64,000 nt of DNA from sequence record NC_070990.1. The stretch is one strand, 5' to 3'. Position numbers and translations under genes: made by a program. This document shows, in pieces, positions 8,201-30,025 of this stretch. This DNA is from Escherichia phage MN03. The notes under the pieces are model-generated. The model saw only the letters and a list, made by a program, of their open reading frames with translations, had not been told where the DNA came from and did not search any database. Numbering within the stretch: position 1 is the stretch's first letter; every line of letters begins with the position of its first letter.

Positions 8201-8419
8201 ATGAAAATGATGAAACAAGCTGCATATGGTTTAATATGTTTAGGCGCAGGTGTTGTGGTATCCACCGCAGTTCCTGTAGGCGCAGTTCATCCATTAGTAA
8301 CTGTCCCTGCTCCAGTAGAGAAGCTTAGCTCTCAATGCAAGCAGAGAACAATTCAAAATAACTTAGTTGTTATTTGCCCTGATGCTGAATCTAACGCTCT
8401 GAGAAAGATACTACCTTAA
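8201..8419 (+). CDS. small signal-anchored or secreted protein (holin-like candidate)
   Basis: 72 aa with an N-terminal 23-aa hydrophobic segment; immediately upstream of the lysozyme gene. Confidence 0.4.
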   Translation: MKMMKQAAYGLICLGAGVVVSTAVPVGAVHPLVTVPAPVEKLSSQCKQRTIQNNLVVICPDAESNALRKILP

Positions 8420-8448
8420 TTTAAAGGGACTACAAAAGGAGGTTAGAA

Positions 8449-8940
8449 ATGGATAACGTCGCATTGCCACCTGTACAACTAAACTTAAGCCCAGCTGGAA
8501 TGGAATTCATCATGAAGCATGAGGGTATGAGAACAAAGGCTTATAAAGATTCCGCAGGTATCTGGACTATATGTGTAGGGGCTACGCGCGATATGAATGG
8601 TTATCCGGTTAGACAAGGATTAACGTATTCTATAGAGGATTGTCTAGCTCTGCTAGATAGAGACACACAAGACTCTGTTCGTGCTACTCAGAAGAACATA
8701 AAGGTTCCTTTACTAGTTCATGAGTTTGATGCACTCACTTCTTTCAACTTCAATGTTGGCAGTGGGGCTTTGAGCACATCTAAGTTAAGGAAGGTAATCA
8801 ATGGAGATGTTAAGGGGGATGTTTATTCCGAATTTCTTCGTTGGGATAAAATAACGGTCAAGGGAGAGAAGCAGAGAAGTCAGGGTCTTCATAATAGAAG
8901 AGTTGCAGAAGCTAATCTTTACACCGAAGGTAAATATTAA
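8449..8940 (+). CDS. lysozyme (GH24 phage lysozyme family)
   Basis: MKHEGMRTKAYKDSAGIWTICVG and FNFNVGSGAL motifs typical of T4 e / lambda R-type lysozymes. Confidence 0.75.
   Translation: MDNVALPPVQLNLSPAGMEFIMKHEGMRTKAYKDSAGIWTICVGATRDMNGYPVRQGLTYSIEDCLALLDRDTQDSVRATQKNIKVPLLVHEFDALTSFNFNVGSGALSTSKLRKVINGDVKGDVYSEFLRWDKITVKGEKQRSQGLHNRRVAEANLYTEGKY

Positions 8941-26683: not shown

Positions 26684-26693
<10 letters not shown>
25794..26693 (-). CDS. P-loop nucleoside monophosphate kinase-like protein
   Basis: NGPPGCGKDT adenylate/NMP-kinase-type P-loop with an extra N-terminal domain. Confidence 0.5.
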
Positions 26694-28179
<1,486 letters not shown>

Positions 28180-28180
<1 letters not shown>

Positions 28181-28443
28181 TATTCTATTCCACGCTCTTT
28201 CAGAGCTTCTAACAATCCATTGTGATTGGCAGCACATTCTGTGTACTGGTCCTGATACCACTCCAACGTAGTGGCTAATGCTTTTCCTTGAGCACTTTCT
28301 AAAAGAGGCAGGTCAACCCTACATTCAGCTTTTAGGTTTGTTGGTAAGGGCATTGATTGCCTGCTGTTGTCGCTCGTTGAACAAGCTGACATACTCATCA
28401 CTAGCGCAGACATTATAAAAAACTGGTTTAGTTTTCTCATAAT
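28180..28443 (-). CDS. o-spanin (Rz1-like outer-membrane lipoprotein)
   Basis: Signal peptide with lipobox MSAC, Pro/Cys-containing periplasmic part; starts inside the i-spanin gene in another frame. Confidence 0.55.
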
Positions 28444-28675
28444 GCATCTCTTTATAAACGGTTTCCGTGTTCTTCTTCCAGTTAGATAAACCGGTAAGAA
28501 CCCTCTGAGCAACTTCATCAGCTGCTCTATTTCTTTCAATCTCTAACTCTTGTTGATGTTTCTCTTTGTCCAGATTACTGCTGTCTGTTTGATATTCGTT
28601 AAACTTCATACCACCAAAGAATACAAGAGCTGAGAAAACGATAAACCCTAAGTTATCACTTAATGTGTTTTGCAT
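28325..28675 (-). CDS. i-spanin (Rz-like)
   Basis: N-terminal TM then coiled-coil periplasmic domain; GGAG RBS at ATG 28675. Confidence 0.55.
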   Translation of the reverse strand: MQNTLSDNLGFIVFSALVFFGGMKFNEYQTDSSNLDKEKHQQELEIERNRAADEVAQRVLTGLSNWKKNTETVYKEMHYEKTKPVFYNVCASDEYVSLFNERQQQAINALTNKPKS

Positions 28676-28688
28676 GTTGTCTCCAACG

Positions 28689-28710
28689 AAAAAAGCCACC
28701 CGGAGGTGGC
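28689..28710 (-). terminator. rho-independent terminator (minus strand)
   Basis: GCCACC-TCCG-GGTGGC hairpin plus TTTTTT on the minus strand. Confidence 0.6.
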
Positions 28711-28732
28711 TAAGCTATAACAAGGAGAGTTA

Positions 28733-29479
28733 TTAGAATGGGCTATCGTTGTCGTCTTCGTAAGTAGAAGCAGGCTCTTTATCAATCGTAGGGATTGAAG
28801 GAGTAGCTTCTTTCTGCTCTGTTTCAGAAGCACGAGTAATTTCACGACCAGCCAGAGGCATATTCTTAGCGTCATTAGCTTGAGTAAGCAGGTTGCGCTG
28901 GAACGGGAACATCAGTTGATAGGATGCTACGTTCTCATCGGTTTCAGCATACGGTTCGAAGAATACCAGAGGACTACGAGCTTCACCAACTGCTGCACGA
29001 TATTTGGTTGGGATTGGAGAAATGGTCTTGATGGAGTTTTTAACTTCACCAGCTTTGTTAGTGTAAGAGTTAACCAGAATGTTAACAGGCTGACCTAACA
29101 GAACATCTTTGAACCAAGACAGATCACCTTTCAGTGCTTGAATACTTGGGTCAATCATCTTGCAAAGATCAAGAATACCAGAGTTCTTAGCTCGTGGGTT
29201 TACATCATAACTCTTGAACTGGCAAGCTGGACGTGGTTCTAATGCCTTACCATCGGAATCTTTACCAGTAGCATCAACACCAATCAGCTCGAAAGCTAAA
29301 TCCATACGGAAAGCCGGATTCTTAGGAGTTACTGCTTTGGTCTTCGGGTCAATCCAAGGGTCACGATTGTGAACACCCAAACCTACTACACGAACGATAC
29401 GTGCTTCGTATTCACCATCAGGGATTACATCGTAGTTGGATTTACGGGAAGAAGTTGCGATAGTTGGAATCATAGACAT
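28733..29479 (-). CDS. putative ssDNA-binding protein
   Basis: Acidic C-terminal tail ending DDNDSPF like SSB/gp2.5 tails; phage-sigma motif upstream. Confidence 0.4.
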   Translation of the reverse strand: MSMIPTIATSSRKSNYDVIPDGEYEARIVRVVGLGVHNRDPWIDPKTKAVTPKNPAFRMDLAFELIGVDATGKDSDGKALEPRPACQFKSYDVNPRAKNSGILDLCKMIDPSIQALKGDLSWFKDVLLGQPVNILVNSYTNKAGEVKNSIKTISPIPTKYRAAVGEARSPLVFFEPYAETDENVASYQLMFPFQRNLLTQANDAKNMPLAGREITRASETEQKEATPSIPTIDKEPASTYEDDNDSPF

Positions 29480-29538
29480 AGTGTAATTTCCTTATTTAAT
29501 TTGAAAGATTGTTGCTCTCTTTGAGCGGTTATGTATAG

Positions 29539-29547
29539 TATACATTA
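29539..29547 (-). promoter_or_regulatory. TAATGTATA motif on the minus strand, candidate phage-sigma promoter
   Basis: Reverse complement gives TAATGTATA 59 nt upstream of the ATG at 29479. Confidence 0.4.
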
Positions 29548-29610
29548 CGCTTATACCGATAAGAGTACTATATAATATAAGAACCTTTGGTAGTAGATAT
29601 AACACACTAG

Positions 29611-29619
29611 TAATGTATA
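29611..29619 (+). promoter_or_regulatory. TAATGTATA motif on the plus strand with no downstream plus-strand ORF
   Basis: Exact motif pointing into minus-strand genes; no ATG-initiated plus ORF for more than 600 nt. Confidence 0.3.
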
Positions 29620-29715
29620 TATTGTATAGCTGATAAAGTTATTGCAGGCTTGTATATTGGGCAATTCACAGAATCCCTTGCAAGTACCGAAGGGCAGGAG
29701 CCACCTGCGAGATAA

Positions 29716-29781
29716 AAATAGAGAATTAAGGAATCCTTGATTTAGGTTGTAGGGACTCCTAGGGACTTTGATTCTCTATTT
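29716..29781. promoter_or_regulatory. 11-bp perfect inverted repeat (AAATAGAGAAT/ATTCTCTATTT) flanking a duplicated AGGGACT core; candidate operator or origin-like element
   Basis: Arms at 29716..29726 and 29771..29781; AGGGACT at 29751 and 29761; inside a 416-bp AT-rich intergenic region. Confidence 0.4.
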
Positions 29782-30025
29782 AAAAGAATATTAATTACTT
29801 ATTACCTAAATAATTAACTAACTTACTTAAACCAAATTCAAGAATAATAGATAAAAAGATTATTCCTAAGAAAGCTAAAAAGTAAAGGATATAAGTTACC
29901 ATTCAAGTAAACCTTTAAAGTTAGACTGTTCTAATATCCTCTGATAACGGAGATTAGAATCAGCTTGTTTCTTTAACATCTCATTATATTGATCTCTGAT
30001 AGAGTCTTTATGTACTACAGGTTCT

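Follow-up and report, generated by a model that had tools for sequence, protein, structure and literature searches.

Rz/Rz1 of phage lambda and PseT.3/PseT.2 of T4 are the models for the mechanism of spanins. Lambda Rz1 is wholly embedded in Rz and comes immediately behind S and R in a single late cassette, an arrangement unlike that of the pair described here. PseT.3 and PseT.2, proteins of 117 and 83 aa, have a separated architecture, and T4 is a precedent for spanins unlinked from the holin and endolysin (Fig. 8 legend). In the census of Kongari et al. (2018), PhiEco32 is entered under the overlapped class with its i-spanin in family JH2, together with Felix O1, and with its o-spanin grouped with those of NJ01, ECBP2 and KBNP1711. 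The GenBank record of phage Paul annotates an i-spanin, an o-spanin and an upstream terminator at positions homologous to those analyzed here. Spanins are also mentioned in two recent Kuravirus papers, and the coordinates in one of them show the same gap of ~19 kb to the holin and endolysin; the genome announcement of Paul makes no mention of lysis genes. The genes, architecture and location of the phiEco32 spanin pair are already known from the literature and database annotation. No experimental test of phiEco32- or Felix O1-type spanins was found in the literature searched.

Region 27500-29600 of the window, the whole stretch of 64,000 nucleotides that was analyzed, has 99.1% identity with Shigella phage ShigP1 and 98.6% with Escherichia phage phiEco32. 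Another 95 phage records also match this region, nearly all of them from Escherichia or Shigella phages, and those inspected belong to the Gordonclarkvirinae, mostly to Kuravirus. The minus-strand genes match phiEco32 genes 40, 39, 38, 37, 36 and 35 one to one and in the same order. Judged by its sequence, the window is that of a phiEco32-like Kuravirus. The gene preceding the terminator upstream of the pair (28733..29479, minus strand) encodes a homologue of gp40 of 248 aa (PHROG 6599, E=5e-119) with an acidic C-terminal tail ending in DDNDSPF. Sequence searches with this protein returned no Pfam or PDB match, and a weak match below the cutoff to an NCBIfam phage replication initiation protein family. 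Downstream of the spanin genes, in the same minus-strand string, is the gene encoding the phage sigma factor (27073..27720, minus strand; PHROG 1740, E=6e-46), a homologue of phiEco32 gp36 annotated as a sigma factor in both phiEco32 and Paul. We place the probability that genes 39 and 38 of this phiEco32-like Kuravirus constitute a two-component spanin of the overlapped class at roughly 0.9.

The i-spanin gene was located at 28325..28675 on the minus strand, with the ATG at 28675 and the TGA ending at 28325, as proposed in the initial annotation, and a GGAG sequence is positioned 7-10 nt 5' of the ATG. The deduced protein of 116 aa is 100% identical to phiEco32 gp39 and 99% identical to the i-spanin of Paul, and matched PHROG 1152 'Rz-like spanin' with E=1.8e-37. 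No pairwise similarity to lambda Rz was detectable by BLASTP (E=35). Such dissimilarity between spanin families is usual. Searches of Pfam and NCBIfam returned no family match for either the i-spanin or the o-spanin; matches were obtained with PHROGs only. The i-spanin sequence contains a single hydrophobic segment at residues 9-23 with a Kyte-Doolittle value of 2.23 over 15 residues and 1.55 over 19 residues. The anchor is short (~15 residues), the 19-residue value being slightly below the classical cutoff of 1.6, and there is no net positive charge on its flanks, so that the positive-inside rule does not predict an N-in/C-out topology. The record of Paul reports a transmembrane domain at 8-23 of its i-spanin, obtained with TMpred. 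Single-sequence AlphaFold2 modeling yielded helices at residues 36-76, 79-91 and 93-111 with low confidence (mean pLDDT 57.7); this model and that of the o-spanin were run without an alignment and are usable for secondary structure only. Hydrophobic periodicity at 3.5 residues was no stronger than at 4.5, giving no distinctive heptad pattern. These low-confidence helices did not substantiate the coiled coil that had been ascribed to the i-spanin. The predicted periplasmic region contains one cysteine, C90, which is kept in diverged relatives.

The o-spanin gene, encoding a homologue of phiEco32 gp38 with a corrected start, occupies 28180..28440 on the minus strand. It had been placed at 28180..28443 in the initial annotation; the stop ending at 28180 was upheld, but the codon at 28443-28441 is ATT and the ATG is one codon later, at 28440-28438. 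The resulting protein of 86 aa corresponds to the 261-nt CDS annotated in phage Paul, to the product of which it is 100% identical. The N-terminus, MRKLNQFFIMSALVMSMSA followed by CST, has basic residues at its beginning and a lipobox consisting of MSA and a cysteine, Cys20, which is followed by serine. Evaluated with a PROSITE PS51257-type pattern, MRKLNQFFIMSALVMSMSA with the succeeding cysteine fits, and the record of Paul reports a LipoP SpII score of 18.0 for the identical protein with the cleavage site between residues 19 and 20, results confirming the lipobox reported earlier. The protein matched PHROG 2425, labeled 'unknown function', with E=3.7e-27 and PHROG 456 'Rz-like spanin' weakly (E=1e-3). 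Prolines are few (3/67), and the single-sequence AlphaFold2 model, of low confidence overall, contains a C-terminal helix at residues 50-82 with a pLDDT of 70-84. Two cysteines predicted to be periplasmic, Cys40 and Cys69, are kept in diverged relatives. The anchor, the lipobox, the serine following its cysteine and the cysteines of both proteins are likewise conserved in relatives at 71-83% identity.

The location of the o-spanin start inside the i-spanin gene in another frame was also borne out. The two genes share a dual-coding overlap of 116 nt (28325..28440, minus strand) in which the o-spanin frame is +1 with respect to that of the i-spanin, and the o-spanin extends 145 nt past the i-spanin stop, which defines the overlapped architecture. 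One reading of this arrangement is that only the i-spanin is real and that the lipobox ORF overlapping it is open by chance, and several GenBank records of the group seem to favor it, the o-spanin being truncated or absent in them. In the records of the original phiEco32 and of ShigP1 the o-spanin is begun 29 codons late at an internal methionine, giving an ORF of 57 aa with no signal peptide. Mis-called o-spanin starts are, however, an annotation artefact documented and quantified by Kongari et al. (2018), and the pattern of substitution is decisive. In a comparison of the window with two relatives encoding o-spanins 77-83% identical, dN/dS in the non-overlapped part of the o-spanin was 0.065-0.10 in its own frame, versus at least 0.6, with stops, in the other two frames. 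The dS of the o-spanin frame fell from >2 in the non-overlapped part to 0.04-0.07 within the 116-nt overlap, a collapse that is expected under simultaneous constraint on two frames. Thus, the o-spanin frame is under purifying selection, which accounts for the data better than chance does.

The relatives SU7 and E20-1 provide further evidence. In both, a homing endonuclease gene (HNH_3+AP2) is located between the genes for the i-spanin and the o-spanin, the end of the i-spanin differs and the N-terminus of the o-spanin is an unrelated sequence. Basic residues and a hydrophobic core are again present in the replacement, as is a lipobox, LMAC or LSAC, the new lipobox being joined to the conserved mature sequence CSTSDNSRQ... 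Since the lipobox has been retained although the signal was replaced, selection is on the lipoprotein signal itself. Additionally, tblastn with the o-spanin identified a homologue in 252 phage records from Escherichia, Salmonella, Erwinia, Klebsiella, Proteus and other phages and, among the matches listed, the homologues were mostly under features annotated as i-/o-spanin pairs. A chance frame is refuted by the substitution pattern, and with the regenerated lipobox and the breadth of homologues it retains a vanishingly small probability. It follows that annotation of the o-spanin should begin at 28440 and include the signal peptide.

The closest described pairs are those of Kuravirus (phiEco32 gp39/gp38, Paul CPT_Paul_036/035, ShigP1_00077/76 and EK5), which are the same genes: their proteins are 99-100% identical, and overlap, upstream terminator and downstream macro gene are all shared, with no difference of substance. 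More distant are the annotated Felix O1-like i-spanin, which is 33% identical to the i-spanin described here (E=1e-15), and the Felix O1-like o-spanin, which is 28% identical to the o-spanin (E=2e-12). The JH2/Felix O1 family shares the overlapped architecture, an MS[AG]C lipobox and a conserved YNVC motif with the pair in the window. It differs in that the genes belong to myoviruses, the neighbors are other genes and the o-spanins are placed in separate families (Kongari et al. 2018). Neighbors of the Felix O1-like pair are rIIB and kinase/phosphatase genes; the 12 features lying within 2.5 kb on each side include no annotated lysis gene.

With lambda Rz/Rz1 the pair has in common its predicted components, an N-terminally anchored protein of the inner membrane and a small lipoprotein of the outer membrane whose gene uses the +1 frame of the same DNA, as well as periplasmic cysteines, and the mechanism is presumed by analogy to be that of lambda. 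The o-spanin is longer than lambda Rz1; its low proline content and the helix predicted at its C-terminus bring it closer to T4 PseT.2 than to Rz1. T4 PseT.3/PseT.2 is also comparable in having a large o-spanin with a predicted C-terminal helix and in protein sizes, which are 116 and 86 aa here; the difference is the separated architecture of the T4 genes versus the overlapped one. The rearrangement in SU7 and E20-1, which makes the pair a separated one, has a counterpart in the comparison of T5 with Shivani and phiR201, where an overlapped pair was split by a homing endonuclease and the lipoylation signal regenerated. The endonuclease of Shivani is of the GIY-YIG type as opposed to HNH_3+AP2 in SU7 and E20-1, and the spanin family differs as well. 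Unlike SU7 and E20-1, the window carries the intact overlapped form. The description of the locus as an overlapped pair of the Rz/Rz1 type is therefore supported by the match to PHROG 1152, the curated annotation of identical or nearly identical proteins in Paul, ShigP1 and EK5, the census of Kongari et al. (2018) and the features of the sequences.

The lysis partners of the proposed spanin were found at 8201-8940; they had been placed ~20 kb away on the late strand, and this was upheld. The annotated holin (8201..8419, plus strand; PHROG 11161 'holin', E=2.8e-50), homologous to phiEco32 gp16, is a protein of 72 aa with one hydrophobic segment and no Pfam family. The adjoining gene (8449..8940, plus strand) encodes a homologue of phiEco32 gp17 that is a GH24 endolysin (Pfam PF00959, E=3.7e-32; PHROG 7 endolysin) without a hydrophobic N-terminus, the maximum Kyte-Doolittle hydropathy over 19 residues being 0.95. 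The holin and endolysin genes are situated between tail genes on the strand opposite to that of the spanins and 19.2-20 kb from them. This layout is not the contiguous lambda-type cassette in which holin, endolysin and spanin share one late transcript. The window nonetheless holds a complete predicted lysis set comprised of holin, endolysin and two-component spanin, and the detached spanins are another example of the pattern described for T4-like phages.

The distance of the pair from the holin and endolysin raises the question of whether it is an envelope system with another role, such as superinfection exclusion or receptor masking, that has been labeled a spanin by architecture only. Llp of T5 is an early-made phage lipoprotein with such a role. 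A function of this kind would be compatible with the location of the genes in the early/middle cluster, with the lack of similarity to lambda Rz and of an assigned function for the best o-spanin PHROG, and with the absence of an experimental test of the family from the literature searched. Against it, an obligate pairing of an anchored helical protein with a small lipoprotein, overlapped in the +1 frame, is the signature of spanins; the paired arrangement is kept in kuraviruses as well as in Felix O1-like, Erwinia and other phages; and the periplasmic cysteines are conserved in both partners. Furthermore, there is no spanin candidate behind the endolysin, the next gene there encoding a tail protein, and detached spanin genes are normal as judged from T4. 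An envelope function other than lysis is consequently regarded as very improbable, and the genes are interpreted below as encoding a spanin.

By analogy with lambda Rz/Rz1 and T4 PseT.3/PseT.2, gp39 would be anchored in the inner membrane by a short N-terminal segment, with a helical domain in the periplasm, and gp38 would be a small lipoprotein that receives its lipid at Cys20 and is targeted to the outer membrane. The outer membrane is the expected destination of gp38 because the residue following the cysteine is serine and not aspartate. The two proteins would be joined through their C-terminal periplasmic parts in a complex spanning the periplasm, and the conserved cysteines may form disulfide-linked homodimers that stabilize it. 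The peptidoglycan mesh would keep the complex caged and inactive until the wall is destroyed by the holin and GH24 endolysin from the late module, after which the freed complex would bring about fusion of the inner and outer membranes and release of virions. An early accumulation of spanins would be harmless since spanins act only after degradation of the wall.

Published work on phiEco32 provides the framework for transcription of the locus. Six gp36-dependent promoters with the consensus tAATGTAtA are located upstream of genes 6, 13, 26, 40, 58 and 68, and the one before gene 40 was identified experimentally (PMC8948821). In the same study, the minus-strand cluster with the genes for DNA polymerase, nucleotide metabolism and the sigma factor was classed as middle and the structural cluster on the plus strand as late (PMC8948821), and a later review places the holin and endolysin in the late module. 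In the window, the motif of this middle promoter, P40 (TAATGTATA, 29539..29547, minus strand), is an exact match to the consensus located 68 nt 5' of the gene-40 ATG, a distance kept in diverged relatives. The published middle class and the P40 motif at 29547-29539 agree with the earlier placement of the pair on the early/middle strand and, with the late plus-strand module on one side and the minus-strand middle cluster on the other, support the proposal that lysis functions are divided between two transcription units.

The terminator scan identified an intrinsic terminator, AGCCACC-UCCG-GGUGGCU followed by U6, at 28688..28711 on the minus strand, the position also annotated in Paul. The stem-loop (28711-28694) has 7 bp, of which 5 are G-C, and a UCCG loop succeeded by T6, the T-run ending 13 nt before the i-spanin ATG. 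The fold of the 57-nt sequence between gene 40 and the i-spanin gene was calculated at -19.5 kcal/mol (z=-3.0). The stem is identical, with a loop of UCCG or UUCG, in SU7, HC-25922, 101114BS3, E20-1 and SU10 (~75-80% identity); in SU10 an HNH gene is inserted 5' of the terminator, which is intact. A search of Rfam over 28100-29900 returned no RNA family. The terminator is the sole intergenic element between gene 40 and the i-spanin gene and leaves no space for a promoter after it; therefore, the spanin, macro and sigma genes would be reached by read-through. The early genes reportedly have no terminator, so that early transcription can also run into the spanin region. Transcription of the spanin genes is most likely from P40 together with upstream early transcription, both by read-through of the terminator, in which case the spanins would be on one message with the macro gene and the sigma-factor gene. 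The pair had been credited with a minus-strand terminator of its own. A terminator is present as claimed, but the better description is that it closes the gene-40 unit and would have to be read through by the spanin message, rather than being a device of the spanins.

Internal gp36 promoters were considered on the basis of motif copies with one mismatch at the o-spanin/macro junction (28182-28174) and within the macro gene (27792-27784), and were rejected. One-mismatch copies were found at the level of chance (21 versus 19.4 expected), and the mismatch in the junction copy falls within the conserved core.

Two readings of this layout concern the time of spanin production. It is conceivable, if doubtful, that kuraviruses deliberately uncouple spanin production from the late lysis genes, the spanins being middle-class products made only through P40 read-through of the conserved gene-40 terminator on the same message as the sigma gene, with translation of the i-spanin limited by a conserved UCUCC/GGAGA stem, which encloses the terminator hairpin and in which the ribosome-binding site is paired. 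Were that the case, spanin complexes would be pre-assembled long before lysis and its timing set entirely by the holin. A somewhat better chance, still well short of even, is given to a split in layout only, the spanin message arising mainly from P40 through the late period or as processed read-through RNA and the products accumulating together with the holin and endolysin, in which event the layout would have no regulatory meaning. P40 and the late promoters are both gp36-dependent with a common motif, consistent with such a shared timing, and the terminator together with a possible stem sequestering the ribosome-binding site before the i-spanin would hold early output low. Shared timing is at odds with publication of the sigma-gene cluster as middle class (PMC8948821) and with the reported lack of a terminator after early genes, which makes early read-in possible, neither of these reports directly addressing genes 38 and 39. 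The layout and the corrected annotation are useful for engineering lysis in kuraviruses for phage therapy or biocontrol; beyond correct annotation the significance of the locus is small, and no new question is opened by it.

The gene following the o-spanin (27740..28180, minus strand) encodes a macro-domain (Appr-1-p processing) protein homologous to phiEco32 gp37 (Pfam PF01661, E=8e-11). The sequence at the junction is TAATG, in which base 28180 belongs both to the o-spanin stop and to the macro ATG, confirming the overlap described in the initial annotation. The accompanying suggestion that the pair is coupled to the macro gene holds as far as this one-base overlap is concerned, but not as a conserved coupling, other genes being found at that position in relatives. 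The slot after the o-spanin is occupied by the macro gene in the phiEco32 group, by a DUF4326 gene in E20-1 and by an ORF of 74 aa in SU7, ECBP2-like and 101114BS3 phages. A functional link between the spanins and the macro protein was rejected given that the downstream slot holds unrelated genes in relatives. Each gene in the slot abuts or overlaps the o-spanin stop, and adjacency of the macro gene is lineage-specific compact packing at an accessory-gene slot rather than functional coupling with lysis.

The o-spanin gene (28180-28440, minus strand) is begun at an internal methionine, or is left unannotated, in the public records of phiEco32, ShigP1, SU10 and other phages. The product from the internal methionine, as annotated for phi32_38 of phiEco32 (L003:3681-3854, numbered within the locus of that relative) and ShigP1_00076 (L001:3681-3854), is 57 residues long and lacks the signal peptide. 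The right start in these records is the equivalent of position 28440 of the window.

The spanin neighbourhood is also a target of homing endonuclease genes in SU7, E20-1 and SU10. Genes encoding HNH_3 and AP2 domains lie between the i- and o-spanin genes of SU7 (L005:2164-2550) and E20-1 (L009:1553-2011), where the insertion has separated the overlapped pair and the lipoprotein signal has been regenerated. In SU10 an HNH gene (L008:1535-1948) is located between gene 40 and the terminator.

Gene content immediately 3' of the o-spanin differs between phages. The slot holds a macro domain gene in the window (27740-28180, minus strand), a DUF4326 gene in E20-1 (L009:2225-2563; Pfam E = 1.9e-17) and a 74-residue open reading frame in SU7/ECBP2-like phages (L005:2761-2985 in SU7). 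The second gene beyond the macro gene, in the downstream direction, is gp35 of the SLOG/YAcAr family (26684-27076, minus strand). Since Iyer et al. 2022 (PMC9503650) tied Macro, DUF4326 and SLOG domains to the processing of ADP-ribose in conflicts between viruses and their hosts, the slot may be an exchangeable one for counter-defence.

Upstream of the i-spanin gene, the minimum-free-energy fold of the minus strand at 28676-28732 contains a 5-bp outer stem bracketing the terminator hairpin, formed by UCUCC directly past the gene 40 stop codon and GGAGA, the i-spanin Shine-Dalgarno sequence. The fold with this stem has a free energy of −19.5 kcal/mol (z = −3.0), and diverged relatives have the stem in a 4-bp version. 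Covariation lends the UCUCC/GGAGA stem no support because the paired bases do not vary. The stem might limit translation of the i-spanin on read-through RNA.

The annotated holin (8201-8419, plus strand) has one hydrophobic segment (residues ~8-30) and matched no Pfam family. The N-terminus of the endolysin (8449-8940, plus strand) is not hydrophobic, with a 19-residue KD maximum of 0.95, and by hydropathy the protein does not look like a SAR endolysin. The endolysin of a related Kuravirus was described as a SAR endolysin and its 'holin' was reported to be without a TMD (2026, PMC13417854).

The 248-residue gp40 homologue (28733-29479, minus strand) has its own middle promoter upstream and a terminator downstream. 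It had no match in Pfam or the PDB, and its sole NCBIfam match, with a family of phage replication initiation proteins, fell below the cutoff. The C-terminus is an acidic tail, ...YEDDNDSPF, which we take to be reminiscent of SSB C-termini.

At its 3' end the macro gene carries a strong sigma-70-like promoter match on the minus strand (27768-27739; TGGACA, 18-nt spacer, TATAAT; 11 of 12 positions), which precedes the start codon of the phage sigma gene (ATG at 27720) by ~20-30 nt. Across the whole region, promoter-like matches did not exceed the frequency seen after shuffling the sequence. Host RNA polymerase could drive gp36 expression from the site at 27768-27739.

The gp36-type promoter motif, TAATGTATA, recurs without mismatch as a second copy on the plus strand at 29611-29619, within the intergenic region 29480-29795 and ~140 nt upstream of the gene 40 ATG. 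This copy faces away from P40, the gp36-dependent promoter of gene 40, and is antisense to the early/middle genes. Rfam returned no match around the motif or the plus-strand hairpin (GCAGG-AGCCA-CCTGC) ~85 nt downstream of it. The motif could act as a divergent or antisense promoter or could drive a small RNA, and its position is the same in the diverged relatives SU7, HC-25922, 101114BS3 and E20-1.
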